NCBI RefSeq assembly: GCF_009931435.1
Contig: NZ_CP043414.1
From: Escherichia coli
Lineage (GTDB): Bacteria > Pseudomonadota > Gammaproteobacteria > Enterobacterales > Enterobacteriaceae
Strand: one strand, 5' to 3'
DNA: 64,000 bases
Shown: positions 9,902-48,215 of the stretch, piece after piece
Numbering within the stretch: the stretch's first letter is position 1
Layout: each line of letters opens with the position of its first letter
The notes under the pieces: generated by a model
Told to the model about the DNA's origin: nothing
Seen by the model: the letters and a program-made list of their open reading frames with translations, nothing else
Databases searched by the model: none
Position numbers and translations under genes: made by a program

Positions 9902-10029
9902 GTGGGGGTTGTGTTTAGGGCCGGGGAGAGTTGGGGTATGACTACGAAAGCCCGCTCTCCTGCGACCACTTTTATCATAGGAGTGTGGAAGTGCTTTTCC
10001 ATCAATCGCGATGACGTCTCAGGGAAAGA

Positions 10030-11103
10030 TTACGAAAGCCCGCTCCCCGCAAGGACTGACGCCAGATACTTTCTGTCCATGGCTGCTTTTCGCATCTTAC
10101 GTCTTAACCCTGCCTTGAATACCTTATCATTCGTCAAAATATTAATTGCGATGTGCCGTATCCCTGAAAATAATTCTGCTGCATTTCCTCTTCTTATTTT
10201 GCAGTCGTCTTCATTCATTACCACGTCCAGACGCCAGTGCAGCTTATTCTCCACGTGCCAGTGGTTTCGGATTGCTGTGGCGAACTTCTCTGCGGTTAAA
10301 TCAGCAGAACTGATATAATATCTGACCGTCATTTCTGGCTCTTTCTTTTGTTCTGCTATTATTGACCGAAAGGAGACTGCCACGCATAATTTCTTCAGAC
10401 CTTTCCATTCAAACGTGAAATCAATAAGTTCATCAGGGACATCGCAAACAATGTGAAGACGGATTTCTTCTCTGCCGTGACTCTTTTCACTAATTGCGTA
10501 ACTGTCATGCTCTGGATTATTTAATTCTTTCAGCGGAAATTTTTCCTCGAAGCCTTTATTTAGCCGCCCCTGGTTTCCTTTTACAGCGAATAAATAATCA
10601 CCTCCCTGTTTTTGTATCTTCTCTGCAATATCTTTCTGGCAACCCATCGCATCAGTTGTGATGATTTTTCCTTTAATATCCAGCATGTTAAGAAGTTCTG
10701 GGATAGCTGTAATCTCATTGGATTTCTCATCCGTCTTGATCTGTCCGATGACCAGACTGTGCATTGTTGAGAACGCACTAATGACATGAATCGCTCCCCT
10801 GCGGCGACTCTTGTCATAAGAGTGCCGGAGCGTTTTTCCATCAATTGCAATGACGCCTTTATCATCTGAAGAATGGCAGTCACGCATCCAGTTAATAAAG
10901 CACTCGTGAAATTTTGCAGGACTGATACAGGATACAACTCTGGCAATGGTATCGTGAACAGGAATACCATTTTCAAAATCACCATATTGCTTCAAAAAAT
11001 CGAGATGTGTTTCCCCAAAATCCTCTATATCTTCCCAACCTTCTGCACCCGAAATAACGGCGCAAATAGTCAACAGTAGAATATCCGATAATTTATGTTC
11101 CAC
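10030..11103 (-). mobile_element. H-repeat-associated (ISAs1-family) transposase, the H-rpt element classically found at the distal end of E. coli Rhs elements
   Basis: 357 aa protein with DDE-type transposase features, strongly similar to the E. coli H-repeat proteins (YhhI/YbfD type); located directly downstream of the Rhs array. Confidence 0.8.
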
Positions 11104-11295
11104 TTTCTAGGCTTGTCTGTAATCGGGGATAATAGAAATATGTTCCATCAATTTTTTAAGTTCCATTTTGTTCTCCTTAATTATGTAAGGAGTATTTGAT
11201 CATGTATAAGCAATAAAAAACAGCTTCAGGTAATGAGGAATATCTCAATTTTTAAACATAAAATGCGAATTGTTTAGTACAAAAAAGCAGCGTTA

Positions 11296-11416
11296 CGTGA
11301 TCTTTCCCTGCCAGCCCCTCCGGGTTGACCTGCTCCGTCACCCGCAGAACCCTGCACAATATCCAGTCCCTTGCAGGTCATGTCACCCTGCCGCGCCGCC
11401 GGTTTTCCGCTCATGG
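11296..11416 (-). pseudogene. Vestigial rhs 5' end (start codon plus about 80 nt) fused to a short internal rhs fragment
   Basis: Bases 11340-11413 nearly match the first 70-plus nt of both rhs genes (compare 16134-16207 and 22269-22342), and are preceded by ccctccgggttgacctgctccgtcacccg, which also occurs inside rhs at about 15060. Confidence 0.55.
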
Positions 11417-11546
11417 TTTATTCCTTTTCTTTTACCTTACATGGCCATACAAATAGTTACCTATACTGTCTTTGAATATTGCCCTATCATTTAAAGCCCA
11501 CCTAATTTTTGCGACAGCAAAGGGATTTCTTTTTTAATCCAATCTA

Positions 11547-11951
11547 TCATTTCATTTTTTTAAAACATACGTTAATGCCATTCACACTTCCACATTCACC
11601 AAAAGCATCAAAATAAATTTCACATTTATTGTTGCCTTTCGAAATGATGCTAACCCCCCATCTTATATTGTTATATTTTTCTTTTCTGAAATACTTCATT
11701 TGCAATAAATCAATTATCTTACCCGCATAGAGATCGCTAAGTTCATTCACCACCACTTTATATCTGTATATTTCATTAAGACCTTCCTTGCTAAGCGGAA
11801 CTAACGTGGTAACATACGATGGAAGATTAACTACCTCTATCGTTTTCACGCTATCTATTCCACACAATTCATTCACTCGCCCCATCCCCAATACCGAACC
11901 AGAAAATAGAGACAATAAAACCATCAAATATTTCATCATAAAAAACCTCAC
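11547..11951 (-). CDS. Putative Rhs immunity protein (RhsI) for the rhs-A C-terminal toxin; has a signal peptide
   Basis: 134 aa, AT-rich, starts at the rhs-A stop codon; N-terminus MKYLMVLLSLFSGSVLG looks like a Sec signal peptide; position is that of an immunity gene. Confidence 0.55.
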   Translation of the reverse strand: MRFFMMKYLMVLLSLFSGSVLGMGRVNELCGIDSVKTIEVVNLPSYVTTLVPLSKEGLNEIYRYKVVVNELSDLYAGKIIDLLQMKYFRKEKYNNIRWGVSIISKGNNKCEIYFDAFGECGSVNGINVCFKKMK

Positions 11952-14900
11952 TATTCTGGCGTACCCGTTATTGTCATCGTCTGCAACGGTCCATCCACCC
12001 GATAAAAAGGCAGTCCACTATGAGCTCCTCTGACACACTCATCTAAAGTTTTCGCCGCACGCGATTCAATTATTGTAATAACCCTTGCCTCTTCTTTATT
12101 ATCATATTTCTTATCCGTCCGACTTAAAAGAGCCATGAAATTTTCTTTATCAAGAAGGTAATACTGTGCATGTGCAAACTCATGCCCCAAACCTAATGCA
12201 GGCGATTGTGATTTCGAGTTTAATTCAGTTGAACAAAATAAAGACGCTCTACTATTCCAATATATCGTCATATTATTCGAATTAAATCTACCATTGGTTC
12301 CTTCAATATACTCTATATTTATAGTTTCTTCAGAGCTTGATAAAAAATCTATAGCATCTTTCATTCGTGAATCTTTTTCTAAATACTTAACAGCCTGATT
12401 AAAATCACTTGGATCACCATTAACCTCGAATTTTAAACCCAAAGAATCTATAAACCGAACAGGGTTTAATGGATATTTATACAGATTCCATTCACCTCTT
12501 AGCCCGATTGGATCCTGCGTGATATACCTCCCCTGCAACGGGTCATAGTACCGGTGACGGTTGTAGTACAGCCCCGACTCCTCATCATACTGCTGCCCTG
12601 GCAGACGGTACGGCTGTTGCAGGTGCTCCGGGTTTTCCTCTCCCAGCAGGTTTCCCCACTCGTCATACTCCCCGCGCCACGCCGTTTCCCCTTCCGGGCT
12701 GATAAGCGCCTGCGGCAGCCCACGGTGGTCACAGTGGTAAAGATGAAGTTTCCTCTCCGGGATGTATTCTTCCTCCATCTGGTTGTTCATCTGTTCCGCC
12801 GTCAGCCCGCACTGCGCAAGCCATGCTTCACTCTCCGCACTCACCGCACCCGCGCGCAGTTCCCGCTCCAGCCTCCCCAGCATCACCGACAGCTCCGCCG
12901 GGAGCGTCACACCCGTGTCCTCCTGCAACACCTCCGCCAGGCTACGGTGCCGCGCCTTCGCCTGTTCGCCATTCTCTGTTTCGATTCTCAGGAGCGGCGT
13001 GAAGCTTCCCGGCTGATAAATCGTCTGGATACGTGTGGTGCCGGTCTGTACCGTCGTCAGCCTGTCACCGTCCCACCCGTACCATGTCTCCTCCGGTTTA
13101 CGCGACAGCGACATCCATCCCGTCAGGTCACGCTCCCGCCGCCACACCCGTTTTCCCGTCCTGCGGCCCAGCGGGTCGTAAAGGTAGCGGCTCTCCACCT
13201 GCGGCTCGCCGTGCTGTATCCGCGTGTAGAACACCAGACGGTGCTGGCTGTCGTAATGGTAGTGGTGGGTGCGCTCGTCGTGCATCCGTATCACCCCTTC
13301 CGGGATACGGTCCGTCTTCTCCGCCAGCCTGCCGTATTCATCGTGGCGGTAGACATAGTGCGCATCTTCCGCGATGCGGTTATCCGGCCACGCCGTGAAG
13401 GTGCTGTCCGGGTGCAGTTCCGGGTCCGGCAGCCGGTTTCCTGCCGGGTCCGTCGCATACGGGATATCAATGTCCAGGTTCGCTGCCGTGGTGTGGACGC
13501 CCGTCAGCCTTCCCGTGTCGCTGTAACGGTACTCCCGGCTCTCCTGCGGGCCGCTGATACGCACCAGTTGCCCGTTATCATTCCACGTATACTCACGGTC
13601 AAGCTGCGGAAGGTTCAGGTGCCTGCTCCGGAGCTGGCCTGTGAGGGTGTATGTGCTGGTCAGTTCATATGCGGCATTACTGCCTGCCATGCTGCCGAAG
13701 CTGCGCACCGTCTCACGGTGCAGCCTGTCCCGCGTGTACTCGACCAGCGGCGTTCCGCCCAGCTTCATCCCCGCAAGATAACCGCTGCCATACGTCAGCC
13801 ACTCCACCGGCGGCAGACCGTCCGGCTCCTGACGGGTCGCCAGCCCCTGTTCGCTGTACGCGTGCCCCGTCTCATGCTCCCACAGCATCTCCCCCGTCTC
13901 CGGGTTCTCCACCGTCTGCCGTTCGCCCGTCAGGCGGCCCTTATCGTCATAGCCGTAGTGGACCGCCACACGGTGGCCTTCACTGGTATGGCTGAGGGTG
14001 GTTAACCACCCGTGCTCATCATACTGCCACTGCTCTGCCGCTTCGCCGTTCACCGTCCGGTGCGTGATGCGGTCCGACGCATCGTAGTGCCAGAGGGTGA
14101 TAAGTCCCTCGTCTTCACTGCGGACAAGCTGCCCTGTGGCGCTGTACCGGTAACGCTGTGTCCGTCCGTCAAAGCCGCGCTGCTCCGTCAGGCGGTCCAC
14201 CGGGTCATACAGGAACGTGGACTGGCTGCCGTTCTCATTAGTCAGCGTGGTGATGCGCCCGGCGGCGTCATACCCCATGCTGCGCGTCAGACCGCCCTGC
14301 GTGGTGCTGATAGCTTTACCCCACGCATCATACTGTGTCTCACTGCGGCTGCCGTTCGGGGCAATGATAGCGGTGAGGTCGCCTGCGGCGCTGTACTCAT
14401 AACGGGTTTCACGCCCCTGCACATCCTTCTGACTGACCAGTTGACCACGCGGGTTATAACTGCTGTAAGTGCTGATGCCTTCTTCCCGGTGAACCGCCGT
14501 CCTCTGCCCGTACCGGTCGTACTCATACCGTGTCGTGTACCCCGAGCAGTCCGTGAAGGCCAGCAGTTGACCGTAGCGGCTCCATGCCATCTGTTTTGTA
14601 CTGCCCGTCGCATCCTGTATCCCTGTCGGCAGCTCACTCGCCGGGTCATCATAGCTGTACCGCGTCGTCTCACCGCTGCGCGAGGTCTCCGCCGCCAGCC
14701 TTCCCTTCTCATCATACTCCCGGCTGCTGCGAAGCCCGTCCGGGTACGTCACTGACGTCACCTGCCGCTGGCTGTTGTAGCCATACCGCACCGTCCTGCC
14801 GTCCGGCCCCGTCACCGCCGTCACCGCGCCCGACGCCATATGCAGGCTGTACTCCGTCCGCCGCCCCGCCGCATCCGTCTGCGCCTTCAGCCTCCCCGCC

Positions 14901-16207
14901 GCATCATACTCGCTGCGGGTGATGCTCCCGTCCGCATGCTCCTTCTTCACCACCCGCTTCAGGCCACCCTCGCCTTCCGTGTACAGCACCTCCCGCCTGT
15001 TCAGGCTGTCCGTGATGGTCACACGGTCCTGCCCGTACTCAAAGCGGTAGGCCAGCCCCTCCGGGTTGACCTGCTCCGTCACCCGACCGGTATCATCATA
15101 CCGGTAGCGGCTCTCCGGCCTCCCCGCATAATGGTGCGCCACCATCCGCCCGGCGTGCTCCGCATCATAAGTAAACCCGCGCACCTGCGTCCCGCTGCGG
15201 TCATACACCGCCAGCAACTCACCGCTGGCCGTGTACGTGTAGCGCGCCAGCGGCGCAGTCGGCTGTTCATCCGGGTATGCCGGGTCGTGTGTCAGCCACA
15301 CCGCCTCCAGCCGGATACCGTTATCGGCACCGTATTCTGTACCGGCGGGCAGCGTGTCGGGGAAAACCTGAGAAGAGGAAACAGAACGGGGACCGGCAGG
15401 GGAAGATAAAGACGTGGCGCGCTGTTTACGGCAGGCTTCCGCCCGCTGCGCCTGCGTGCTCAGCAACAGGTGAAAACGACGGCCCGCACCGTCCGTCCCC
15501 CCCGTCACCGCGCCCGCCACGTCACCCTCCGCTGCCCGGTGAAAGGCCAGCGTCCGACCAAAGCCATCCACCACGCCCGTCAGCACCCGGTATGCGGGCG
15601 GTTCCGGCGGCAGCACCTCGTCCGCCCCCGGCACCCGCTCCGGCCAGCTGAGTATCCACCACGGCCCCTGAAGGCTGTTTGTCGCCAGGTACACATGCGG
15701 ACTCAGGCGAACATCTTCCGGCAGCACCTGCCAGAGCGCGCTTAGCGGCTGCGAACTGTGCTGCTCCGCCCCCCCGCCCCGCGCCAGCCAGAACGACTCG
15801 CTGCGGCTGTAGCTTATCTCGCCGGGAAACAGCGGCTCAAAGTGAATGCTCCTGCCGCCGTTGTCGTTGAGTATCAGTTCCCGCTCATGAACCTGTAAGC
15901 GGATATCGAAGGGCGCTTTCCAGCCGGGGCCGAACACGCCCACCGGCGCGGGCGTCCTGGTCCGGTAACTGCTGTAAGCGCGGGAAAGAATAAACGGCAG
16001 CGGGCCGGGCAGTGCCAGGTCCGTCTCGCCCGGCAGCACCTTCGCACCCAGCACCGGGTTCACCGGGTTAGCATAGGTAATCCCTCCCGGACACACCGAG
16101 CAGGCCACTCCCGTCGGCGCACCTATCAGCACCCCTGCTGAACCCTGCACAATATCCAGTCCCTTGCGGGTCATGTCGCCCTGCCGCGCCGCCGGTTTTC
16201 CGCTCAT
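11951..16207 (-). CDS. Rhs-family polymorphic toxin (distal copy) with PAAR-like N-terminus, YD-repeat shell and a C-terminal domain carrying an HExxH motif
   Basis: 1418 aa; N-terminal [16 protein letters not shown]...VACSVCPGG, many YD repeats, DPIGL demarcation motif, then a unique roughly 160 aa tail containing [10 protein letters not shown]. Confidence 0.9.
12502..16207 (-). repeat. Rhs core repeat, copy A (near-identical to 18628..22342; apparently perfect over about 12502..14060)
   Basis: Identical antisense ORFs at a fixed 6126 bp offset (12554..14005 and 18680..20131, etc.) and direct line-by-line comparison. Confidence 0.85.
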
Positions 16208-16330
16208 GGTTTATTCCTCTTCCTCTGAATAAACTTATTTTTGATGCACTAATGATTTTCAAAAGAGATTTATATTTAACGACAATTCAGCACTTTTAAT
16301 GTAAAAGATCCCCGGCTGAATGATATTCAC

Positions 16331-17299
16331 TCATTGTTTGTTATCAGAAAGTGTTTTATACAGCGGCACATATCCCACGTCTTCCACAAGACTTTGCCCC
16401 TGAGGGCTTAAAAACCAGTCCACTAGTTTTTGTGTTTCCGGTGTCGGCTTTTCGCGGGTGACCATGTAGGCATCCACCACATACGGATAAGTACCGTTGC
16501 GGATATTCTCCACCGTTGGTGCAATACCATTTATTGCCAGCAGCTTAAGATTTGGGCTTATATCCTTATTCATCTGTGTGACATAATAGCGGAAGGTGTA
16601 ACCAATTGAAGGCTGCGTATTCCGGTAGGCAATTACTTTGGTTAACACTCCATTCATAAGGCTTACTTCTGTAGATGTTCTGGCGGGTAGCATCGGTGTC
16701 TCTTTCATCACCTTTGCCAGCATCACCGTCTGGCTACCGGAATCTTCCGGACGCTGCCAGACCTGAATGCGCTCATCACTGCCACCAACCTGACTCCAGC
16801 GGGTGATTTTACCGCTGAAGATATCCCGAACCTGCTGTTCAGTAAAAGAACTGACCGGATTACTGGCGTTAACGATAAAAACAAAGGCTTCGTGGGCGAA
16901 GGGGGTATAAACCAGTTTCACCCCGGCATCGGCAGCCCGTTGTTTTTGTCCTGCGGAAGGCTGGGCAACAAAAATAACATCGGCCTGGCGCTTTATGAGA
17001 TCATTATAGGCTTCTGGTGTACGAGTCGGATACATATAATTCAAACCCGGATCTTGATGGTTATCCCCGGGGATCAAATATCGGTAAGCTGAAGCATACA
17101 GTGGATATAACGCGGTTGCACCACATACCCGGGGCCATTTATTCGAGTTATCAGTGTAGCGTAAAGTGGGTTCTCCTCGTATATTGGTTTTCTCCCAACT
17201 CACTGTTTCTTTTACGCTGTTATCGCCCCCGCCGTCTACACATCCTGACATTAATACCGTCATATAAAATAATACTGGTAACAGGCCCACCCTACGCAT
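16331..17299 (-). CDS. PstS-like (phosphate-binding-protein fold) lipoprotein; start uncertain, ORF extends to 17365
   Basis: 344 aa ORF; probable start MRRVGLLPVLFYMTVLMSGC with lipobox; AT-rich; lies between the two Rhs modules. Confidence 0.6.
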   Translation of the reverse strand: MRRVGLLPVLFYMTVLMSGCVDGGGDNSVKETVSWEKTNIRGEPTLRYTDNSNKWPRVCGATALYPLYASAYRYLIPGDNHQDPGLNYMYPTRTPEAYNDLIKRQADVIFVAQPSAGQKQRAADAGVKLVYTPFAHEAFVFIVNASNPVSSFTEQQVRDIFSGKITRWSQVGGSDERIQVWQRPEDSGSQTVMLAKVMKETPMLPARTSTEVSLMNGVLTKVIAYRNTQPSIGYTFRYYVTQMNKDISPNLKLLAINGIAPTVENIRNGTYPYVVDAYMVTREKPTPETQKLVDWFLSPQGQSLVEDVGYVPLYKTLSDNKQ

Positions 17300-17627
17300 A
17301 CAATGATTTAATAAATACGCCATATACCTCACTCTAAAATATTGATTATATAAATACATATGCATAATTATATTTACATCAAATTCTGAATGAACAATTT
17401 AAATTTAGAGAAAGTGAAATTTAATTTTTCGATACTTCCGCATACATATTCCCCTCGCTAAAAAATCATCATTCCACAATCAATCATTAATTACAACTCA
17501 ATATACATCATTTAACTTTCATTAAACTCGCAATTTATTATTACATTGTAGCCATTATGAACTGTCATCACGCACACACTCTACATACACATTAGAAACA
17601 ATATAACCCCATGAGCCATCCTCCGTT

Positions 17628-18074
17628 TCAATACTTAGTGCAGCGTGTCTTAAGGAAATTAGAAGCCACAACATCAATCTTTTCTTTTAAGACTAAATCA
17701 TCCACATAATCACAAGACAAATAGAAGTCATTACCATCGGCCATTATAAATATCCTCATAGGTAAAGATTTATCATTATCAACATGAGCATTCGTAATAA
17801 TCCAATAATAAGGAAATCTAACATTTTTTGTAGGAATACCCAATAAATCATAAGCTTTATTATTATATTCTATCGCTCCCTTAACAAACGTTGGTTTGAC
17901 CTCCTTACCAATAATGCGATGCGACGTATATTCTTCCTTCTCAGCAAACGATTGCATTAATGCCCATATAGGTTTATTTGCCAGCTCACCGTGATGAAAA
18001 ATCCGATAAAAATACACTCCTAAAAAAAATATTAAGCCTAAGCAAACCAATACCATGAGGCAGTTCTTACTCAT
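17628..18074 (-). CDS. Putative Rhs immunity protein (RhsI) for the rhs-B C-terminal toxin; N-terminal membrane anchor
   Basis: 148 aa, AT-rich, overlaps the rhs-B stop by 4 nt; N-terminal hydrophobic helix [18 protein letters not shown]. Confidence 0.55.
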
Positions 18075-22342: not shown

Positions 22343-22417
22343 GAATCAATTCCTTCTGCTTTTAATATGGTTCATCTGGCCACTGCACCAGTTCCGTTTT
22401 AATTTTTTGCACCTGAC

Positions 22418-24559: not shown

Positions 24560-24721
24560 AGCAACCTCCGGGTTTAAGGAAAAACAGACAGTTCGCTGTT
24601 AAAGCGGCTGTAACAGTACAGTGTTACGCTTGCGTTCAGGCACGCTACCGCCGAAGTTTCCGGCATCCGCCATCTCCCGTGAACGTAACCCCTTACTGAC
24701 AACCTTTCTTTTTACGGCGTA

Positions 24722-24760: not shown

Positions 24761-24768
24761 GGCTTAAC

Positions 24769-32893: not shown

Positions 32894-33414
32894 ACAGGAA
32901 GGCGTTTCTGGCCTGCGTGCTGATGTGCGTCATATTAACCGGCTGCGAAACGGCGAAAAAAATCAGCGAGGTGATCAAAAACCCGGATATCCAGGTCGGG
33001 AGCCTGAAGGAGCAACCTTCGGAAATAACCGTCACCCTGCTGACTGAACCGGACACTAATACCAATGCGGAGGGTGAATCAGCCGCCGTGGATGTGCAAC
33101 TGGTGTACCTGACGGACGACTCAAAATTGCAGGCAGCCGACTATGACCAGATAGCCAGTACGCCGCTACCGGATGTGCTGGGTAAAAACTATATCGACCA
33201 CCAGGATTTCAACCTGTTGCCGGACACCATCAAAACCCTGCCGCTGGTAAAGCTGGATGAGAAAACGCAGTTTATTGGTGTCGTGGCCTATTTCTCCGAT
33301 GACCAGGCCACGGAATGGAAACAAATCGAGACGGTGGAAGGAACCGGCCACCATTACCGCCTGCTGGTGCATGTACGTCAAAGCAGCATCGAAATGAAAA
33401 AAGAGGATGAATAA
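32890..33414 (+). CDS. tssJ: T6SS outer-membrane lipoprotein TssJ (SciN/VasD)
   Basis: 174 aa; lipobox LTGC; overlaps the tagH stop. Confidence 0.85.
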   Translation: MNRKAFLACVLMCVILTGCETAKKISEVIKNPDIQVGSLKEQPSEITVTLLTEPDTNTNAEGESAAVDVQLVYLTDDSKLQAADYDQIASTPLPDVLGKNYIDHQDFNLLPDTIKTLPLVKLDEKTQFIGVVAYFSDDQATEWKQIETVEGTGHHYRLLVHVRQSSIEMKKEDE

Positions 33415-35514: not shown

Positions 35515-35522
35515 GGACGTTT

Positions 35523-38282: not shown

Positions 38283-39022
38283 GCAGGTTGCGCGTTTTCC
38301 GGCAGACAGGATGGTTTATCGCGGGCCTGATGGCGGGCTTACCCGCCAGTGCCGCGCCCGCAGAAACATCGTCAGTGGCCGGTGTGGCGGTAGCTGTCGC
38401 CACAGCGACACCGCCGGATGCGACAGCCACGTTACAGGCCATGCGGTCCTGTCGCCAGGAGACGGCGGCGCTGGAGCGGCTTGACTGCTATGACCGCCTG
38501 CTGGCACCCCTTTCTCCGTCAGGGTTTGACGGGGCGCTGGTCAAAGCCGGTTTTGTGGGCGAGGCCTGGACCCGCGCCACAGAGCAGGAAAAACGCCGCC
38601 AGGGCAACACCACAGAGCTGCTGGTGACGCAGGTGCCGGGAGAACGCCCGACGGTGGTGGTAACCACCCCGGCTATCGGCCATGTTCCGCCTCGCCCGGT
38701 GCTGATGTTCAGCTGTGTGGACAATATCACCCGGATGCAGGTGGCGCTGGTGCACCCTCTGGATGTCCATGATATCGCCGTCACCCTGAATGCCGACAGC
38801 CGGGTATTGCGCAGCCACTGGTTTGTGCGCGAGAACGGCACCCTGCTGGAGTCCAGCCGGGGGCTGTCCGGGATTGATGAAATTAAGCAACTGTTCGGCG
38901 CAAAAACGCTGACGGTGGATACCGGCGCAGATAACGCCGCCGGAAAGCTGACCTTTAACATTGACGGGCTAGCAAGGGCGATTGCCCCCCTGCGCGATGC
39001 CTGCCACTGGGCGGGAGAATAA
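38279..39022 (+). CDS. T6SS-associated secreted protein (VasI-like)
   Basis: 247 aa with signal peptide; sits between clpV and tssA as VasI does in vas-type clusters. Confidence 0.55.
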   Translation: MSRLRVFRQTGWFIAGLMAGLPASAAPAETSSVAGVAVAVATATPPDATATLQAMRSCRQETAALERLDCYDRLLAPLSPSGFDGALVKAGFVGEAWTRATEQEKRRQGNTTELLVTQVPGERPTVVVTTPAIGHVPPRPVLMFSCVDNITRMQVALVHPLDVHDIAVTLNADSRVLRSHWFVRENGTLLESSRGLSGIDEIKQLFGAKTLTVDTGADNAAGKLTFNIDGLARAIAPLRDACHWAGE

Positions 39023-39026
39023 AAAT

Positions 39027-40442
39027 ATGGCAATGGACTTACGCGATCCGAATGTCTGGATATCGCACCTGCTGGAAAACCTGCCGGAAGAGAAACTGGC
39101 ATCGGCGCTGAAAGATGACAACCCGGACTGGGAGTATATCGACGGCGAAATCGTCAAACTGGGTTCACTGGCCCACAGCCAACTGGATATCCCGGAACTC
39201 CAGCGCCGGGGGCTGGTCATTCTGGCTTCGGAGAGTAAGGATTTTCGTCTGCTGGCACACCTGCTCAGAACCCTGCAACATGCCGGTGATCCACTGCTGG
39301 CACTGCGCCTGCTGGCGCTATACGTGGAACATTACTGGACTGTGGCCGCGCCGCAGAATATGGCGCATAAAAAACGCTTTGCCAGCCAGATCATTAAACG
39401 TTTTGAAACGGGTATTGAAGGCTTTTCACAGAACGCCGCCACCGCGCAGCGCGATGCACTATTAGGTGAACTGGCGAAACTGGCGCAGTGCTGGCAGTCA
39501 CATAACGCCCCGGAACTGGCAGAGGCTACTGATGATCTTTTTGCCCTGTACCAGCGTGCGTTTAATCGTGCGGCACCGGCTCCTGCCCACACTCCGGCGG
39601 CCTCCGGTAGTTCACCACAGACCACCGCCACGTCTGAAAGCGGCGTGACGCAAACCAGTGCTCCGGCTCCACAGATCGCCATCGACAGTCACGACGACAA
39701 AGCCTGGCGCGACACGCTGTTAAAAGTGGCGGCCATTTTATGTGAACGCCAGCCGGACTCGCCGCAGGGCTATCGCCTGCGCCGCCATGCCCTGTGGCAA
39801 TCCATCACCAGTACGCCCCAGGCGGAAAGCGATGGACGCCCCCCACTGGCTGCGGTCTCCGCCGATATGGTGGCAGATTACCATGCTCAGCTCGGTAGTG
39901 CCGATATGGCGCTGTGGCAGCAGGTGGAAAAAAGCGTACTGCTGGCACCCTACTGGCTGGACGGTCACTGCATTTCTGCACAGACGGCGCACCGTCTTGG
40001 CTATACCGCCGTGGCCGATGCCATCCGCGATGAAGTCGTTTCCTTTCTTGGCCGTCTGCCCGCGCTCGCTGATCTTCTGTTTAACGACCACACACCGTTT
40101 GTTTCTGAAAAAACGAAGCAATGGCTTGCAACTCAGCCAGGTAACCAGGCCGCGCCAGTCATACAGGTGAGTAATGAAGATATTCAGGCTGCGCGGTTGT
40201 GTTTTGATGAACAGGGGCTGGAAGCCGCCTTACGGTATCTGGATACGTTGCCCGCCGGTGAACCCCGCGACCAGTTTCACCGGCAGTATTTTGGCGCGCA
40301 GCTTATGGAAGAGGCGGGGCTGGTACAGCTTGCGCAGCAGCAGTACCGGATGTTGTTCAGGATGGGATTGCAGATGATGGTGGCAGACTGGGAGCCGTCC
40401 CTGCTTGAGCAGCTAGAACAAAAATTCACGGCAGAACAATAA
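39027..40442 (+). CDS. tssA: T6SS protein TssA (ImpA N-terminal domain; VasJ-like)
   Basis: ORF 38982..40442 trimmed to the ATG at 39027 (MAMDLRDPNVWISHL...); ImpA_N-type N-terminus. Confidence 0.85.
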   Translation: MAMDLRDPNVWISHLLENLPEEKLASALKDDNPDWEYIDGEIVKLGSLAHSQLDIPELQRRGLVILASESKDFRLLAHLLRTLQHAGDPLLALRLLALYVEHYWTVAAPQNMAHKKRFASQIIKRFETGIEGFSQNAATAQRDALLGELAKLAQCWQSHNAPELAEATDDLFALYQRAFNRAAPAPAHTPAASGSSPQTTATSESGVTQTSAPAPQIAIDSHDDKAWRDTLLKVAAILCERQPDSPQGYRLRRHALWQSITSTPQAESDGRPPLAAVSADMVADYHAQLGSADMALWQQVEKSVLLAPYWLDGHCISAQTAHRLGYTAVADAIRDEVVSFLGRLPALADLLFNDHTPFVSEKTKQWLATQPGNQAAPVIQVSNEDIQAARLCFDEQGLEAALRYLDTLPAGEPRDQFHRQYFGAQLMEEAGLVQLAQQQYRMLFRMGLQMMVADWEPSLLEQLEQKFTAEQ

Positions 40443-40460: not shown

Positions 40461-43400
40461 GTGTTCAGATTACCAACACCCCGACTATTCAGCGGACTCA
40501 AATCAGCCCTGCGCCCGGCGATGCCCCGGTTTAAAGTTTCTGCATTCTGGCTGCTGATACTGGCGTGGATTTTCCTGCTGGTATGGATCTGGTGGAAAGG
40601 CCCGGCATGGACGCTGGATGAAGAGCAGTGGCTCAAACCACTGGCGAACCGCTGGCTGGCAACGGCGGCGTGGGGGATTATTGCCCTGGTGTGGCTTACC
40701 GTCCGGGTAATGAAGCGCCTGCAACAGCTTGAAAAAATGCAAAAGCAACAGCGCGAGGAAGCCGTTGATCCGCTCAGTGTGGAACTGAACGCCCAGCAGC
40801 GTTACCTCGACCGCTGGCTGCTGCGCCTGCAACGCCATCTCGACAACCGCCGTTTCCTGTGGCAGTTGCCGTGGTATATGGTCATCGGTCCTGTGGGCAG
40901 TGGCAAAACGACACTGCTGCGCGAGGGGTTTCCGTCAGACATTATTTATGCCCCGGAGGGCGCGCACGGCGCAGAACAACGCCTGTACCTCACGCCCCAT
41001 GTCGGTAAACAGGCGGTGATCTTTGATATCGACGGCACACTCTGCGCTCCCGCTGATGCGGATATCCTGCATCGCCGTCTGTGGGAACATGCCCTCGGCT
41101 GGCTGAAGGAAAAGCGCGCGCGCCAGCCGCTGAACGGGATTATTCTGACACTCGATTTACCCGATCTGCTGACCGCAGACAAACGCCGCCGCGAGCATCT
41201 GTTACAGACGCTGCGCAGCCGCTTACAGGATATACGCCAGCATCTTCATTGCCAGTTACCGGTTTACGTGGTACTGACCCGGCTTGATTTATTGCAGGGT
41301 TTTGCCGCCCTGTTTCAGTCACTGAACAGACAGGATCGCGATGCGATTCTGGGTGTTACGTTCACCCGCCGTGCTCATGAAAATGATGACTGGCGAACAG
41401 AGTTGAATGCTTTCTGGCAGACATGGGCGGATCGAATGAATCTGGCGTTGCCGGATCTGATGGTCACCCAGACTCACACCCGCGCGTCTTTATTTAGTTT
41501 TTCCCGCCAGATGCAGGGAAGCCGTGAACCGCTGATATCACTGCTGGAGGGTCTGCTTGACGGCGAAAATATGAACGTGATGCTGCGTGGTGTCTATCTC
41601 ACCTCTTCGCTTCAGCGTGGACAGATGGATGATATATTCACCCAGTCTGCTGCCCGCCAGTACCGACTGGGCAATAACCCACTGGCGTCCTGGCCTCTGG
41701 TGGACACCGCGCCTTATTTCACCCGCAGCCTGTTCCCGCAGGCATTACTCGCAGAGCCTAATCTGGCAACAGAGAGCCGCGCCTGGCTGATGCGTTCCCG
41801 TCGCCGCCTGACGGTTTTCTCTGCCACAGGCGGCGTGGCGGCACTGCTGCTCATCACCGGCTGGAATCACTATTACAACGGTAACTATCAGTCCGGCATC
41901 ACCGTGCTTAAGCAGGCCAAAGCCTTTATGGACGTGCCGCCTCCGCAGGGGGAAGATGACTTTGGTAACCTACAACTGCCGCTGCTGAACCCGGTACGCG
42001 ATGCCACACTGGCCTATGGCGACTGGGGTGACCGCAGCCGCCTGGCCGATATGGGACTGTACCAGGGGCGACGTATCGGGCCTTATGTGGAACAGACCTA
42101 TCTGCAACTGCTGGAGCAGCGTTACCTGCCCTCGCTGTTTAACGGGCTGGTCAAAGCGATGAACGCCGCACCGCCGGAGAGTGAGGAAAAACTCGCGGTG
42201 CTGCGCGTGATGCGAATGCTGGAGGACAAAAGCGGACGCAACAATGAGGTGGTGAAGCAGTATATGGCAAAACGCTGGAGCGAAAAGTTCCACGGACAGC
42301 GCGATATCCAGACACAACTGATGTCCCATCTTGACTACGCGCTGGCTCATACTGACTGGCATGCAGAGCGTCAGGCGGGCGACGGTGATGCCATCAGCCG
42401 CTGGACGCCATATGACAAGCCTGTTGCGACAGCACAGAAAGAACTGAGCAAACTGCCTGTCTACCAGCGGGTTTACCAGAGCCTGAAAACGCGGGCGCTG
42501 GGCGTTCTTCCTGCTGACCTCAATCTGCGTGACCAGGTAGGGCCAACCTTTGACCAGGTGTTTACATCTGCCGATGATAACAAACTGGTTGTTCCACAGT
42601 TTCTTACCCGTTACGGCCTGCAAAGCTATTTTGTAAAACAGCGCGATGAACTGGTTGAACTGACGGCGATGGATTCCTGGGTACTCAACCTCACCCGCAG
42701 CGTGAAATACAGTGACGCCGACCGCGCGGAAATTCAGCGCCAGTTGACCGAGCAGTATATCAGCGACTACACCGCCACCTGGCGGGCCGGGATGGACAAT
42801 CTCAATATCCGCAATTTTGAGTCCATTGGACAACTGACTGGCACTCTGGAGCAGGTTATCAGCGGCGACCAGCCTTTGCAGCGGGCGCTGACCGTGCTGC
42901 GTGACAACACACAGCCAGGCGTCTTTTCTGAAAAACTCTCTGCCAAAGAGCGGGATGAGGCCCTGGCAGAGCCGGATTACCAGTTACTCACCCGCCTCGG
43001 GCATGAATTCGCCCCGGAAAACAGTACCCTGACAGTACAGAAAGACAAAGAAAGCACGATGCAGGCCGTATACCAGCAGCTCACCGAGTTACACCGCTAC
43101 CTGCTGGCAATCCAGAACGCGCCTGTACCAGGGAGATCGGCGCTGAAAGCCGTGCAGTTAAGGCTTGATCAGAACTGCAGCGATCCAATATTCGCCACCC
43201 GCCAGATGGCAAAAACACTGCCTGCTCCGCTCAACCGCTGGGTAGGCAGGCTGGCTGACCAGGCCTGGCATGTGGTGATGGTGGAAGCCGTTCACTATAT
43301 GGAAGTGGACTGGCGCGACAGCGTGGTGAAACCGTTTAACGAGCAACTGGCAAATAACTATCCGTTTAATCCACGTTCTGCACAGGATGCCTCACTGGAT

Positions 43401-43985
43401 GCCTTCGAACGATTCTTTAAACCGGATGGCGTACTGGATACCTTCTACCAGCAGAACCTGAAACTGTTTATCGACAATGATCTGAGCCTGGAAGACGGCG
43501 ATAACAGCGTCATTATCCGCGAAGATATTATTGCGCAACTGGAAACCGCGCAGAAAATCCGTGACATCTTCTTCAGCAAACAGAACGGTCTGGGAACATC
43601 CTTTGCCGTGGAAACGGTATCGCTTTCCGGCAACAAACGCCGCAGCGTACTGAACCTTGACGGCCAGTTAGTCGATTACAGCCAGGGCCGTAACTATACC
43701 GCCCATCTGGTCTGGCCTAACAATATGCGCGAAGGCAACGAAAGCAAACTGACGCTGGTTGGTGCCAGCGGCGGCGCACCGCGCAGTATCAGCTTCAGCG
43801 GGCCGTGGGCGCAGTTCCGCCTGTTCGGGGCCGGACAACTGACCGGAGTACAGGATGGCAACTTTACCGTGCGCTTTAGCGTGGACGGTGGCGCGATGAC
43901 CTACCGTGTGCATACCGACACCGAGGATAACCCGTTCAGCGGTGGGTTGTTCAGCCAGTTTGGTCTGTCAGACACACTGTACTGA
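40461..43985 (+). CDS. tssM: T6SS membrane core protein TssM (IcmF)
   Basis: 1174 aa; GTG start with AGGAG upstream; N-terminal transmembrane helices, Walker A GPVGSGKTT, IcmF-like periplasmic domain. Confidence 0.95.
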   Translation: MFRLPTPRLFSGLKSALRPAMPRFKVSAFWLLILAWIFLLVWIWWKGPAWTLDEEQWLKPLANRWLATAAWGIIALVWLTVRVMKRLQQLEKMQKQQREEAVDPLSVELNAQQRYLDRWLLRLQRHLDNRRFLWQLPWYMVIGPVGSGKTTLLREGFPSDIIYAPEGAHGAEQRLYLTPHVGKQAVIFDIDGTLCAPADADILHRRLWEHALGWLKEKRARQPLNGIILTLDLPDLLTADKRRREHLLQTLRSRLQDIRQHLHCQLPVYVVLTRLDLLQGFAALFQSLNRQDRDAILGVTFTRRAHENDDWRTELNAFWQTWADRMNLALPDLMVTQTHTRASLFSFSRQMQGSREPLISLLEGLLDGENMNVMLRGVYLTSSLQRGQMDDIFTQSAARQYRLGNNPLASWPLVDTAPYFTRSLFPQALLAEPNLATESRAWLMRSRRRLTVFSATGGVAALLLITGWNHYYNGNYQSGITVLKQAKAFMDVPPPQGEDDFGNLQLPLLNPVRDATLAYGDWGDRSRLADMGLYQGRRIGPYVEQTYLQLLEQRYLPSLFNGLVKAMNAAPPESEEKLAVLRVMRMLEDKSGRNNEVVKQYMAKRWSEKFHGQRDIQTQLMSHLDYALAHTDWHAERQAGDGDAISRWTPYDKPVATAQKELSKLPVYQRVYQSLKTRALGVLPADLNLRDQVGPTFDQVFTSADDNKLVVPQFLTRYGLQSYFVKQRDELVELTAMDSWVLNLTRSVKYSDADRAEIQRQLTEQYISDYTATWRAGMDNLNIRNFESIGQLTGTLEQVISGDQPLQRALTVLRDNTQPGVFSEKLSAKERDEALAEPDYQLLTRLGHEFAPENSTLTVQKDKESTMQAVYQQLTELHRYLLAIQNAPVPGRSALKAVQLRLDQNCSDPIFATRQMAKTLPAPLNRWVGRLADQAWHVVMVEAVHYMEVDWRDSVVKPFNEQLANNYPFNPRSAQDASLDAFERFFKPDGVLDTFYQQNLKLFIDNDLSLEDGDNSVIIREDIIAQLETAQKIRDIFFSKQNGLGTSFAVETVSLSGNKRRSVLNLDGQLVDYSQGRNYTAHLVWPNNMREGNESKLTLVGASGGAPRSISFSGPWAQFRLFGAGQLTGVQDGNFTVRFSVDGGAMTYRVHTDTEDNPFSGGLFSQFGLSDTLY

Positions 43986-43995
43986 GGAGGCAGGG

Positions 43996-45348
43996 ATGAA
44001 TAGTAACGTACTGACACAAACTATCGTTACCGGCAGTGACCCGCGCGGGCTGCCGGAATTCAGCGCCATCCGCGAGGAAATAAACAAAGCCAGCCACCCG
44101 TCACAGCCTGAGCTGAACTGGAAACTGGTGGAGTCGCTGGCGCTGGCGATTTTTAAAGCTAACGGTGTGGATTTACACACCGCCACCTACTATACGCTTG
44201 CACGGACACGGACACAGGGACTGGCGGGCTTTTGCGAAGGTGCGGAACTGCTGGCGGCAATGGTAAGCCACGACTGGGATAAGTTCTGGCCGCAGGGCGG
44301 CCCGGCGCGTACTGAAATGCTGGACTGGTTTAACTCCCGAACCGGCAATATTCTGCGTCAGCAAATCTCCTTTGCGGAATCCGACCTACCACTGATCTAC
44401 CGCACGGAGCGGGCATTGCAGCTTATCTGCGACAAACTCCAGCAGGTAGAGCTGAAGCGCGTTCCGCGCGTGGAGAATCTGCTCTATTTTATGCAGAACA
44501 CGCGTAAACGGCTTGAACCCCAGCCGAAGAGTAACGCCGAGAACACCTCACAGACCACGGTCAGAACGCTGATTTATGCACCGGAAACAATGGCTTCCTC
44601 CACGCCAGAAGCAGTAGTGCCTCCCCTGCCCGACCTGCCCGAGATGAAAGTGGAAGTGCGCAGTCTGTCAGAAAATCCCCCACAGGCCAGTGTGATGAAG
44701 CAAGGCAGTACGGTAAGAGGGTTTATCGCAGGGATCGTCTGTTCAGTGGCTGTCGCCTCAGCATTGTGGTGGTGGCAGGTCTATCCGGTGCAGCAGCAAC
44801 TGTTACAGGTTAACGACACCGCGCAGGGCGCAGCAACGGTGTGGATGGCCTCACCTGAACTCGAAAACTATGAGCGCAGGTTGCAACAGCTTCTTGGCGT
44901 CTCCCCGGTACAACCGCTGGAAACCGGAATGCAGATGATGCGTGTTGCCGACAGTCGCTGGCCGGAAAGCCTGCAACAGCAACAGGCCTCGACACAATGG
45001 AATGAGGCACTCAAAACCCGCGCACAGAGTAGCCCGCAGTTGCGTGGCTGGTTGCAGACCCGCCAGGACTTACATGCTTTTGCAGATCTCGTGATGCAGC
45101 GCGAGAAAGAGGGACTAACCCTTTCCTATATCAAAAATGTCATCTGGCAGGCGGAGCGGGGACTGGGGCAGGAAACACCCCTGGAATCCCTGCTGACGCA
45201 GTACCAGGATGCCCGTGCACAGAAGCAGAATACAGATGCGCTGGAAAAACAAATTAATGAGCGACTCGAAGGCGTGTTAAGCCGCTGGCTGCTGCTGAAG
45301 AATAACGTCATGGCAGAGGCGGCAACCGGGACCACGACCGGAAAATAA
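43996..45348 (+). CDS. TssA-like ImpA_N-domain membrane protein (VasL-like accessory)
   Basis: ORF 43906..45348 trimmed to the ATG at 43996 (MNSNVLTQTIV...); ImpA_N-like N-terminus, central transmembrane helix FIAGIVCSVAVASALWWW, coiled-coil-like C-terminus. Confidence 0.65.
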   Translation: MNSNVLTQTIVTGSDPRGLPEFSAIREEINKASHPSQPELNWKLVESLALAIFKANGVDLHTATYYTLARTRTQGLAGFCEGAELLAAMVSHDWDKFWPQGGPARTEMLDWFNSRTGNILRQQISFAESDLPLIYRTERALQLICDKLQQVELKRVPRVENLLYFMQNTRKRLEPQPKSNAENTSQTTVRTLIYAPETMASSTPEAVVPPLPDLPEMKVEVRSLSENPPQASVMKQGSTVRGFIAGIVCSVAVASALWWWQVYPVQQQLLQVNDTAQGAATVWMASPELENYERRLQQLLGVSPVQPLETGMQMMRVADSRWPESLQQQQASTQWNEALKTRAQSSPQLRGWLQTRQDLHAFADLVMQREKEGLTLSYIKNVIWQAERGLGQETPLESLLTQYQDARAQKQNTDALEKQINERLEGVLSRWLLLKNNVMAEAATGTTTGK

Positions 45349-45854: not shown

Positions 45855-45896
45855 CATACTGCAATAACATAATAACTTACTATTACGGAGAGATAA

Positions 45897-46811
45897 ATGG
45901 CTGGTTTAAGGAATAATAACAACACACAGAATGCACAGTGGGCTGATTATGTGGGTGACATTCTTCGGGGGTCTCAGCCGATAAACCAGCTAGTACCTCA
46001 GCACCCTTATCTTAACGACATCCCACTCATTGATGAGTTAAGGCGTCAGAACACTCATCATGTTATTCTTTTGACATTTGATGTTGCAAAAAAAATACTC
46101 AACCCAATAACATCATTTGATTACATTCATTTTATCACTACACATCCTTCAGGTATAAAAGATACACTAGCCTGGTTAGTTAACGCGGGTAAATTAATGA
46201 CTGAGTTTGATGAAAATGGGAAAATTATATTTAACCTTAATACCTTAAAGTATACAAAAGCAAGTTACTTTGAAATACTTGGAGAGAAATATATAAAAAT
46301 CACAACATCCAGCCCCTGGCTTTTAGAAAAGCTCGGTAAATATATTTTCTCTTCACGAGCGCCTCAAGTTCTGGAGCTCGCTATTGGCTGGCGAGGAGCT
46401 TTATCTGAATCAATAAAAGGAGTTAAGTTCTGTATCTGGTTTTCAGTAGCCTGGAGAACCATAGAATTTATTATGAGTTCAGAGCGAGATCTGGTTAATT
46501 TTCTTGGTGATTTTTCAATGGATGTGGCCAAAGCAGTGATTGCAGGCGGTGTTGCAACCGCTATTGGAAGCCTGGCTTCTTTTGCCTGTCTTAGTTTTGG
46601 CCTTCCAGTAATTCTTGTAGGAGGAGCAATTTTACTTACAGGGATAGTGTGTACAGTTGTTTTAAATGAAATCGATGCTCAATACCATTTATCAGAAAAA
46701 TTAAAAGATGCAATTAGAGATGGACTAAAACAGCAACAGGAACTTGATAAATGGAAAAGGGAAAACATGACTCCATTTATGTATGTTCTTAACACCCCCC
46801 CCGTGATATGA
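45897..46811 (+). CDS. Candidate T6SS effector with C-terminal glycine-rich transmembrane hairpin (possible membrane-disrupting toxin)
   Basis: 304 aa, AT-rich; C-terminal AVIAGGVATAIGSLASFACLSFGLPVILVGGAILLTGIVCTVVL; directly downstream of hcp2 and upstream of a small polytopic membrane protein. Confidence 0.45.
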   Translation: MAGLRNNNNTQNAQWADYVGDILRGSQPINQLVPQHPYLNDIPLIDELRRQNTHHVILLTFDVAKKILNPITSFDYIHFITTHPSGIKDTLAWLVNAGKLMTEFDENGKIIFNLNTLKYTKASYFEILGEKYIKITTSSPWLLEKLGKYIFSSRAPQVLELAIGWRGALSESIKGVKFCIWFSVAWRTIEFIMSSERDLVNFLGDFSMDVAKAVIAGGVATAIGSLASFACLSFGLPVILVGGAILLTGIVCTVVLNEIDAQYHLSEKLKDAIRDGLKQQQELDKWKRENMTPFMYVLNTPPVI

Positions 46812-46820
46812 GGATTAACT

Positions 46821-47288
46821 ATGTGTTTACATGTTAAATTGAAAGAGTTTCTTTCGATGTTTTTTATAGCCATGTTATTTTTCCCTGCATTCAATGCTTC
46901 TTTGTTTTTTACCGGAATTAAACCTCTATACTCAATAATAAAAGGCTCCACGGAAATATTTTATGATTGGAGAATGTTGATTCTATTCTTCGGTTTCATA
47001 TCGTTTTCCTTGTTAAATATTCATGTAATTTTACTAACGATAATAAAATCATTCTTAATAAAAAAAACAAAGGTAATCAATTTCGCCACAAACATAACAA
47101 TACAGCTAACTCTTATATTTTTACTAATAGCTATCGTAATAGCACCTTTAATAGCTCCTTTTGTCACAGGATATGTCAATGCTAATTATCACCTCTGCGG
47201 TAATAACACGGGGATTTTCCCAGGAGCAATCTATATTAAAAATGGCATGGAATGTAATAATGATTATATTTCTCACAAGGAAGATTAA
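46821..47288 (+). CDS. Candidate immunity protein: small polytopic inner-membrane protein
   Basis: 155 aa with about four hydrophobic helices; AT-rich; 10 nt after the candidate effector. Confidence 0.4.
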   Translation: MCLHVKLKEFLSMFFIAMLFFPAFNASLFFTGIKPLYSIIKGSTEIFYDWRMLILFFGFISFSLLNIHVILLTIIKSFLIKKTKVINFATNITIQLTLIFLLIAIVIAPLIAPFVTGYVNANYHLCGNNTGIFPGAIYIKNGMECNNDYISHKED

Positions 47289-47429
47289 GCAGTTAAATAT
47301 TATAAAACAAACAGTTTTTAACTCCGGATTCCATGTCCTTTTTTGCACTGTCTTTGTCAGGAAAAAATTTCTTATGCAAAGAATTTTGTATTATTGCCGC
47401 CAGAAATCCCTGCCGGCAGATATAATTTA

Positions 47430-48215
47430 TTATTGATAGCGGTTAACCAAATCTTTTACCATCGCTTTATAGGTCTTTTGCTTAAGTTGCATGATTTGCT
47501 GCTCTGTCATATCAGTCGTACTGGCTTCATTCTTGCCGGGCAATGGTGGAAGCACTTTATATTCATAATTCATCGGCGACCAGGCAGCCCACTCACCTGT
47601 AGCTACATCCACCAGCGTGAATCGCACCAGATAGCGCAGTGAGATTGTGTTAGTCAGTTTTTCATTTTTATAATCGGACCATACTGTTGATTTCAGCGCA
47701 GAGTCATATTTTCCTGTCTGCAACGTATCATGGTAAACAATAATCGCTTTCTGATGCCCTTTCGCAGCCACAAAACGCAATGCCTGCATCCAGTTCATAT
47801 TTTCAGCACTGGCAACATCCTCGTTCTCATTTTTATCTTTATTTTTGTTACAAGTCAGAGGCTTTTGCCTGTCCGGGATACCAGAGAATGTGGAAACAGT
47901 ATAATATTTTCTCATCTCCTCCTGCATAATGGTTTCCGGTGCGCGACTGCCAGACTGGACAAGTATTACGGGAGAATTGAGAGGCACACGAAACTCATCT
48001 CCTTCAAGCGCAGCCTGAATATCCTCCTCGGATACAGCCAGAGTGGTTTCATTACCGAATAAATCTTTGTCTGTCAGTTGCGGGGGAATGTTTTTATTAA
48101 TATTACTTTGTGTAACCTGAGCTTTTTTCTTTTTTTCATCAATAGAAGATTGAGAGGCACATCCTGCAAGCAGCGAGAATAATACACATATGCAACAAAC
48201 CTTTTTTGAATTCAT
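47430..48215 (-). CDS. yafT: Lipoprotein YafT
   Basis: 261 aa; lipobox LLAGC; sits next to aspV as in K-12. Confidence 0.85.

Follow-up and report, generated by a model that had tools for sequence, protein, structure and literature searches.

The DNA window analyzed here, a 64,000-nucleotide (nt) stretch of the Escherichia coli contig NZ_CP043414.1 (assembly GCF_009931435.1), carries between yafV and the tRNA-Asp gene aspV all core genes of a type VI secretion system (T6SS), along with two Rhs genes and further cargo next to a second hcp gene (Table 1). The 13 core genes, TssA to TssM, are all uninterrupted open reading frames (ORFs) whose lengths match the annotated genes of relatives. Each core protein scores above the curated cut-off of its NCBIfam equivalog over essentially the full model, with E values from 1e-34 to 0, which excludes chance; these matches bear out the complete secretion system with Rhs and Hcp-linked genes that a first-pass annotation, made from the letters alone, had placed between yafV and yafT. 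TagH, VasI, the second Hcp, both RHS core proteins and the ISAs1 transposase likewise exceed their cut-offs over full models. We consider it very probable that the segment from 9889 to 48540 represents, in intact form, the T6SS island associated with aspV in E. coli, with a Vibrio-cholerae-like cluster.

Among solved structures, the closest to Hcp1 is 5mxn, listed as "Haemolysin co-regulated protein" (2.4e-85), with 4hkh far more distant (1.6e-20), and TssK follows the same pattern; the search output names no organisms, and we take 5mxn to be the Hcp of V. cholerae and 4hkh that of the Sci-1 system of enteroaggregative E. coli (EAEC). Because of this nearest-structure pattern, which is indirect, the cluster probably belongs to subclass i1. 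The ORF listed for tssH/clpV begins at an upstream TTG, while relatives annotate 2745-2760 bp with the same stop. A scan of the hcp1-tssB intergenic region for promoters and terminators recovered sites no more frequent than in shuffled sequence. The conserved ORF of 74 amino acids (aa) between tssB and tssC is also annotated in E. coli strain 2013C-4282 and called in Escherichia albertii; it faintly resembles positions 43-82 of the TssC model (E 5e-4), as a duplicated N-terminal fragment of TssC would.

Table 1. Features of the aspV island and its immediate flanks (positions in the window; GC, guanine-plus-cytosine fraction; TM, transmembrane; PBP, periplasmic binding protein)
Feature	Position	Strand	Evidence and remarks
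yafV	9122-9901		left flank
Variable segment (island)	9889-48540		38,652 bp; mean GC 0.533; comparison with empty-site strains
Rearranged ISAs1 fragments	9934-10029		end-like 27-mer recurring at 10022-10048; 67-nt copy of internal ISAs1 sequence
ISAs1-family (H-repeat) transposase gene	10030-11166	-	NF033564, 414.8 bits, model 1-314/314
Orphan Rhs fragment	11289-11415	-	includes 35-nt exact copy of Rhs1 internal sequence; repeat families
Presumed Rhs1 immunity gene	11547-11951	-	"RHS element protein dsORF-h1" in relatives; GC 0.34
Rhs1, 1418 aa	11951-16207	-	NF041261, 2603 bits, cut-off 2000
PstS-family/PBP_like_2 PBP-like lipoprotein gene	16331-17365	-	PF12849, 6e-32; between the Rhs genes
Presumed Rhs2 immunity gene, 148 aa	17628-18074	-	overlaps rhs2 stop codon; GC 0.33
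Rhs2, 1423 aa	18071-22342	-	NF041261, 2549 bits, cut-off 2000; directly downstream of vgrG
vgrG (tssI), spike	22418-24559	-	TIGR03361, 629.8 bits; PDB VgrG matches down to 2e-99
hcp1 (tssD), tube protein	24769-25287	-	TIGR03344, 207 bits
hcp1-tssB divergent intergenic region, presumed regulatory	25288-25982		GC 0.33
tssB, sheath	25983-26483	+	TIGR03358 above cut-off
Conserved 74-aa ORF between tssB and tssC	26518-26742	+	
tssC, sheath	26793-28268	+	TIGR03355 above cut-off
tssE, baseplate	28275-28688	+	TIGR03357 above cut-off
tssF, baseplate	28692-30542	+	TIGR03359 above cut-off
tssG, baseplate	30500-31588	+	TIGR03347 above cut-off
tagH, FHA-domain accessory protein	31592-32893	+	TIGR03354, 341 bits
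tssJ	32890-33414	+	TIGR03352 above cut-off
tssK	33417-34748	+	TIGR03353 above cut-off
tssL	34753-35514	+	TIGR03349 above cut-off
tssH/clpV ATPase	35409-38282	+	TIGR03345, 1125 bits, cut-off 885
vasI	38279-39022	+	TIGR03360 above cut-off
tssA	38982-40442	+	TIGR03362 above cut-off
tssM (IcmF-like membrane-complex subunit), intact	40461-43985	+	TIGR03348, 943.5 bits
VasL-domain protein, TssA/ImpA-like N-terminus	43906-45348	+	TIGR03362 below cut-off, N-terminal region; RefSeq name in relatives
hcp2, second tube/carrier protein, 160 aa	45372-45854	+	TIGR03344, 205 bits; GC 0.41
304-aa protein, full-length form of K-12 yafU	45897-46811	+	candidate Hcp2-linked effector
ykfM, 155 aa	46821-47288	+	three predicted TM helices; GC 0.30; RefSeq name in relatives; candidate immunity protein
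yafT lipoprotein gene	47430-48215	-	name from annotation
tRNA-Asp (GTC), aspV	48542-48618	-	ARAGORN, Rfam; its 3' end marks the right island border
dnaQ	48751-49491		right flank

The borders were set by comparison with strains E2348/69 and A3024, in which the site is empty and aspV lies 98 bp past yafV. In the empty-junction alignment, homology with the window stops at about 9888, so that the last four yafV codons differ, and restarts exactly at 48541, where the tRNA gene has its 3' end; the island therefore spans 9889-48540 and sits at the 3' end of a tRNA gene, as tRNA-associated islands do. The yafT gene falls inside the variable segment and is absent from both empty-site strains. The island of the first-pass annotation thus stands, whereas its extent of 37.5 kb with yafT as the border gives way to 38.65 kb with the tRNA on the right. 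The left flank holds fadE, ivy and yafV and the right flank aspV, dnaQ, rnhA, yafS, gloB, mltD, yafE, yafD, yafC, dkgB, aspU and an rRNA operon, in an orientation that we take to be reversed relative to the usual K-12 map. Identity of these flanks to K-12 is about 97%, and to the closest complete genome, that of strain 2020CK-00188, it is 98.7-99.7%.

Direct repeats at the borders, a feature that the first-pass annotation had thought worth looking for, were not found: the 260 bp at the aspV junction and the 700 bp around the yafV junction have no k-mer of at least 9 nt in common on either strand. A mismatch-tolerant scan likewise recovered no second partial tRNA copy elsewhere in the island, and NCBIfam matched no integrase or recombinase among the scanned island ORFs. 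The sole mobility gene is the ISAs1-family transposase, which has an in-frame stop at codon 20 (between DYRQA and KVEHKL); the closest complete genome has an intact 378-aa ISAs1 transposase annotated at the same place. Repeats near 9934-10048 were considered as att sites and rejected, being ISAs1 fragments, and window positions 9958-10030 are missing from K-12. With no integrase and no flanking repeats, the island does not look like a self-mobile element.

Base composition within the island is uneven. The Rhs shells are the most GC-rich parts (0.63-0.64), and tssB to vasL (0.56), vgrG (0.56) and hcp1 (0.55) also exceed the flanks (0.48-0.52), whereas the Rhs C-terminal toxins and their immunity genes fall to 0.33-0.39, hcp2 to 0.41, the 304-aa gene to 0.38, ykfM to 0.30, yafT to 0.42 and the hcp1-tssB intergenic region to 0.33. 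The contrast between GC-rich core and AT-rich cargo noted in the first-pass annotation is thereby confirmed by region.

Comparison with K-12 by BLAST gave four collinear blocks: K-12 3-5740 corresponds to window 4220-9957; K-12 5726-6005 to window 10031-10310, which is the 3'-terminal part of the ISAs1 transposase gene (yafF); K-12 6001-13162 to window 46455-53605, from inside the 304-aa gene (yafU) through ykfM, yafT and aspV; and K-12 13137-15054 to window 53801-55718. The K-12 gene order given in the first-pass annotation is correct and, with the stumps placed, reads fadE-ivy-yafV-[ISAs1 fragment, yafF]-[yafU fragment]-ykfM-yafT-aspV-dnaQ. K-12 holds only remnants here, as had been said, through a single 36,144-bp deletion of window 10311-46454 that leaves the last 280 bp of the ISAs1 transposase gene fused to the last 357 bp of the 304-aa gene. 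With the same flanks, and with yafF, yafU and ykfM about 97% identical to the island sequence, K-12 thus lacks all of the machine, the two Rhs genes and the first 558 bp of the 304-aa gene, and keeps ykfM and yafT intact. By this alignment, the K-12 genes yafF and yafU are the stumps on either side of a 36-kb deletion, and ykfM is a gene that survived it; the three were rightly seen as remnants, but not as alternatives to the island, for ykfM and a full-length yafU are present in the window. The closest complete genome, 2020CK-00188, lacks 13391-32169 (18.8 kb), which fuses Rhs1 to tagH, and also window 42782-43089 (about 308 bp) within tssM, annotated there as frameshifted. In that strain the island decayed independently of the deletion in K-12.

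We then counted the island parts among 5,426 complete E. coli genomes. A 20.4-kb core query (window 25000-45400) reached a coverage of at least 80% in 2,028 genomes and had a match of any extent in 3,543; the empty junction, with yafV beside aspV, was found in 757. The island content is therefore common, far from universal, and the first-pass annotation had named presence throughout the species as what would speak against its reading. Coverage of at least 80% was reached by ykfM in 2,997 genomes and by the 5' half of the 304-aa gene in 2,573. The best core match is at least 95% identical in 2,865 of the 3,543 matching genomes, and most carriers lie at 95-99%. In 536 genomes it is only 60-80% identical, with three sampled rows showing about 80% identity over 63% of the query, a hint that the island exists in two old allelic lineages. 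One of these three sampled rows lies near record position 0.2 Mb, perhaps the same locus.

Both Rhs proteins have the expected shell: besides the NF041261 matches of Table 1, TIGR01643 and TIGR03696 were recovered, and Rhs2 shows DUF6531, RHS repeats and the RHS domain. Rhs1 lies 6.1 kb beyond Rhs2. From nt 601 to 3750 the two genes are 93-100% identical except for one block at 85%, whereas identity drops to 67-89% in their first 600 nt and the sequences past the boundary motif are unrelated. A recent tandem duplication was rejected on account of these divergent 5' ends and unrelated toxins, despite the near-identical central 3 kb, and the pattern points instead to recombination or gene conversion within the shell. 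Both N-termini begin M(S/G)GKPAARQGD, a literal PAAR motif, and residues 51-169 align with Pseudomonas aeruginosa Tse5, beginning where the Tse5 chain begins. The C-terminal toxins follow the boundary motifs DPLGL in Rhs2 and DSLGL in Rhs1, and small ORFs overlap or abut the stop codons of both genes.

The C-terminal toxin of Rhs1 carries an HExxH motif (GHEFAH) and a weak Peptidase_M91 match (E 0.024). Its immunity candidate has a signal-peptide-like N-terminus by eye, with no 19-residue window reaching the TM threshold, and toxin and immunity gene together are at least 80% covered in 1,017 of the 5,426 genomes. The Rhs2 toxin, 162 aa long, has its histidine first and its cysteine later (GHSAM ... 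HNCATM), as in permuted papain-like hydrolases. Its sole significant match is to Lnb_N/DUF4105 (3e-07, about 60 residues); matches to PPPDE and TseH are weak, and searches of its sequence against solved structures gave chance-level matches only (E >0.5). In a collection of 5.8 billion proteins it has four homologs, none more than 66% identical, of which two are from Citrobacter; the metagenomic homolog P0001 lies within an array of orphan Rhs C-terminal modules. The Rhs2 immunity candidate has one N-terminal hydrophobic helix by hydropathy, and neither Rhs immunity candidate has a significant NCBIfam or Pfam family. Because these candidates carry a hydrophobic helix or a signal-peptide-like N-terminus, we expect the Rhs1 and Rhs2 toxins to act in the envelope of the target. 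For E. coli, the C-terminal domain of Rhs2 may represent a new and very rare envelope toxin of the DUF4105/TseH-like kind.

The Rhs2 toxin module is the island's one unusual part. The 2.4-kb segment 16208-18600, comprising the Rhs2 C-terminal toxin, its immunity gene and the PstS-like lipoprotein gene, has no megablast match in any of the 5,426 genomes. In sensitive blastn the PBP-like gene alone was matched, by a 71%-identical E. coli paralog at glgP-glpD; to TIGR02136 the island protein scores 128 bits, below the cut-off of 206.6. At glgP-glpD in strain 2020CK-00188, two adjacent PstS-family paralogs head a block of hypothetical, membrane and ankyrin-repeat genes, and these two are the only E. 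coli paralogs of the island gene. The island PBP-like protein is 96% identical to a protein of E. albertii, whose T6SS locus (GCA_021397455.1, contig JAEHKJ010000022) has the same order of tssC-tssB / hcp-vgrG-Rhs-...-PBP-like gene-second Rhs. This tandem Rhs-PBP-like-Rhs layout, common to the window and E. albertii, was not seen in the annotated E. coli loci inspected. Identity between the two loci is 94.9% over the DNA that runs from the PBP-like gene to the 5' end of Rhs1, whereas the neighboring T6SS genes and the rest stand at 84%; in E. albertii two ORFs make up the first Rhs, and nothing in the window matches the sequence where its C-terminal toxin and immunity gene would lie. The Rhs2 toxin itself is absent from the E. 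albertii locus examined, and it may have arrived together with the block formed by the PBP-like gene and the Rhs1 5' end.

A further cargo unit lies downstream of hcp2, where the 304-aa gene is followed by ykfM. Hydropathy places a hairpin of hydrophobic helices in the C-terminal part of the 304-aa protein (residues 213-261), and homologs of this protein, none of them named, come from E. coli, Salmonella (63% identity) and Rahnella (39%). No significant Pfam or NCBIfam family was matched by this protein, YkfM or YafT. An AlphaFold2 model of the 304-aa protein from a 10-sequence alignment, with a mean predicted local distance difference test (pLDDT) score of 44 and a predicted template modeling (pTM) score of 0.26, was too poor to use. 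Strain 2013C-4282, which also has a different Rhs C-terminal toxin, carries other genes downstream of hcp2, including one for a DUF1311 protein, and for this reason the slot behaves like a variable effector-immunity site. Probably the 304-aa protein is an effector that travels with Hcp and inserts into membranes, and YkfM would be the protein that confers immunity to it. The composite acquisition history proposed in the first-pass annotation gains support from these strain-variable cargo slots, from the Rhs2 module with no near E. coli match and from the uneven identity to E. albertii.

By analogy with known systems, the island would work as follows. A membrane complex of TssJ, TssL and TssM would anchor the machine, TssE, TssF, TssG and TssK would form the baseplate with VgrG, and a TssA cap would prime polymerization of the Hcp tube and the TssBC sheath. 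Contraction of the sheath would expel the Hcp tube, VgrG spike and Rhs proteins into a neighboring cell, and ClpV would recycle the sheath. Rhs2 and Rhs1 would mount on VgrG through their short N-terminal segment with the PAAR motif, each enclosing a small toxin behind a DPxGL-type boundary, metallopeptidase-like (HExxH) in Rhs1 and DUF4105/PPPDE/TseH-like in Rhs2. Hcp2 would carry the 304-aa membrane-inserting effector, which YkfM would neutralize as immunity protein, and further cargo may be encoded elsewhere in the genome. The export or membrane signals of the immunity candidates suggest envelope targets for all three toxins. Within the species, the island varies in two ways: parts of it are deleted, as K-12 and the closest complete genome show, and its cargo modules are exchanged when the conserved Rhs shell recombines.

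Several observations weigh against this picture of an intact, armed machine. Pfam recognizes no PAAR domain in the first 50 residues (residues 1-1200 of Rhs2 were scanned), and the ORF lists hold no stand-alone PAAR gene in the island. No kinase or phosphatase partner of TagH was matched among the scanned island ORFs, the Rhs1 boundary reads DSLGL and not the canonical DPxGL, and the effector role of the 304-aa protein is drawn only from position, hydropathy and strain-to-strain variability. For the copy in EAEC strain 042, moreover, there is no experimental evidence of expression (PMC2808357).

The missing PAAR domain and TagH kinase would also fit a cluster that is intact in sequence and functionally silent, a relic on its way to deletions of the kind found in K-12 and the closest relative. 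The closest complete genome, with flanks 99% identical, has indeed lost 18.8 kb and damaged tssM, and of the 3,543 genomes in which any part of the core was matched, only 2,028 retain 80% or more. The control region between hcp1 and tssB has, moreover, a very high AT content, and control regions of this kind are typical targets of H-NS. None of the 21 machine and accessory ORFs is frameshifted or prematurely stopped over 23 kb, however, which would be unexpected without selection and argues against silence; homologous aspV systems are also reported to be active in enterohemorrhagic E. coli (EHEC; PMC5363993) and in the delivery of Rhs and Hcp-ET proteins (PMC6730261). We therefore regard a silent relic as unlikely. 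Somewhat less likely still is a system directed mainly at host cells through eukaryote-directed effectors such as KatN, rather than at bacteria. Secretion of the catalase KatN by the EHEC aspV T6SS, and its contribution to virulence (PMC5363993), speak for such a role, as do reviews that tie T6SS2 to pathogenesis (PMC6730261); yet no eukaryote-type effector is encoded in the island, and all three cargo modules pair a toxin with a small adjacent gene whose product carries export or membrane signals, the signature of antibacterial effector-immunity pairs. A classical tRNA-targeting, integrase-mobilized pathogenicity island that recently entered the lineage at aspV is highly improbable: the segment does abut the tRNA-Asp 3' end exactly, with heterogeneous GC and presence or absence among strains, but it has no integrase or recombinase ORF beyond the interrupted ISAs1 transposase, no repeat shared between its junctions and no partial tRNA copy, and some part of its core occurs at the same locus in 3,543 of the 5,426 genomes, in many independent states of decay, which is consistent with old residence and repeated loss.

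For the intact antibacterial T6SS island that we favor, the main value lies in the correct annotation of a full, apparently functional copy of a system that shapes competition among E. coli strains, and in an origin for the three K-12 "y-genes" yafF, yafU and ykfM. Two small leads follow: the 304-aa/YkfM pair, assigned to no family despite its presence in more than 2,500 complete E. coli genomes, and the Rhs2 toxin-immunity module, absent from all 5,426. That the former is an uncharacterized Hcp2-dependent effector-immunity pair, and the Rhs2 toxin a new, rare DUF4105/TseH-like envelope toxin, is a tentative joint proposal to which we give somewhat less than even chances. If true, K-12 and hundreds of other strains without the machine would still carry ykfM as an orphan gene that protects them from relatives armed with the T6SS. 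A literature search for ykfM or yafU in connection with T6SS returned no papers, and an unrestricted search gave unrelated acronyms. Neither lead alters the understanding of how the T6SS island functions.

Elsewhere in the window, about 195 bp (53606-53800) at the 5' end of a yafE-like methyltransferase gene are absent from K-12; the protein has 256 aa here and in most strains, and K-12 yafE is annotated at 207 aa. Near the window edge, the ORF at 121-1104 encodes a C-terminal FlhA fragment (model positions 357-677 of 678), followed at 1188-1836 by two small ORFs, with no NCBIfam match here, where strain A3024 annotates hicA/hicB, and at 2818-3359 by a dinJ-yafQ toxin-antitoxin pair above cut-off. 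Between yafJ and the gmhA/lpcA region, on the minus strand at 5111-5188, Rfam recovered naRNA4 (CssrE), a nucleoid-associated RNA derived from repetitive extragenic palindromes (76.3 bits against a gathering score of 59.5). The segment 56763-62000 holds a second tRNA-Asp gene, aspU, beside an rRNA operon with tRNA-Ala and tRNA-Ile in its spacer; in the first 25 nt compared, the 3' end of aspU differs from that of aspV by one base.

The island as such is already described in the literature, and what the present analysis adds is the K-12 deletion scar, the true borders, the species-wide frequencies and one rare Rhs toxin module. EHEC EDL933 carries a 37-kb T6SS island at aspV, whose system secretes KatN and contributes to virulence (PMC5363993). 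In the adherent-invasive E. coli strain LF82, pathogenicity island (PAI) I spans 35 kb at tRNA AspV with two hcp genes, clpV, vgrG and two ImpA-like genes, and is common to 536, UTI89, S88, APEC O1 and ED1a and absent from E2348/69 (PMC2941450). The third T6SS of EAEC 042 is also inserted at aspV and encodes an FHA protein (PMC2808357). A review covers the name T6SS2, the Rhs effectors and the link to pathogenesis, and lists K-12 and B without a T6SS (PMC6730261), and in a survey of 131,610 genomes subclass i1 is broadly distributed (bioRxiv 10.1101/2025.01.23.634537). EDL933 Z0248-Z0267, LF82 PAI I and Ec042_0210-0226 ("T6SS2", Journet-Cascales) occupy the same site as the island described here and belong to the same size class. 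More distantly, the Salmonella pathogenicity islands SPI-6 and SPI-20 also lie at aspV, SPI-20 without obvious direct repeats (PMC2907695); they share the position and a mosaic GC content but differ in genus and in island content.

At the level of single proteins, the Rhs genes resemble Tse5 (PDB 8cp6) and a Photorhabdus Rhs (7q97) in the shell, the C-terminal DPxGL boundary and the variable toxin with adjacent immunity gene. In the window, a short N-terminal segment precedes the conserved PVNPLLGAK, which aligns with the first residues of the Tse5 chain, whereas the toxin domains are unrelated to the Tse5 pore-former. The histidine-first, cysteine-later arrangement of the Rhs2 toxin is that of the TseH, DUF4105 (Lnb_N) and PPPDE hydrolases. 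With the published aspV islands the window has the same gene set in common, namely two hcp genes, clpV, vgrG, two ImpA/TssA-like genes, an FHA protein and Rhs, and it differs from them in its two tandem full-length Rhs genes with a PBP-like gene between.

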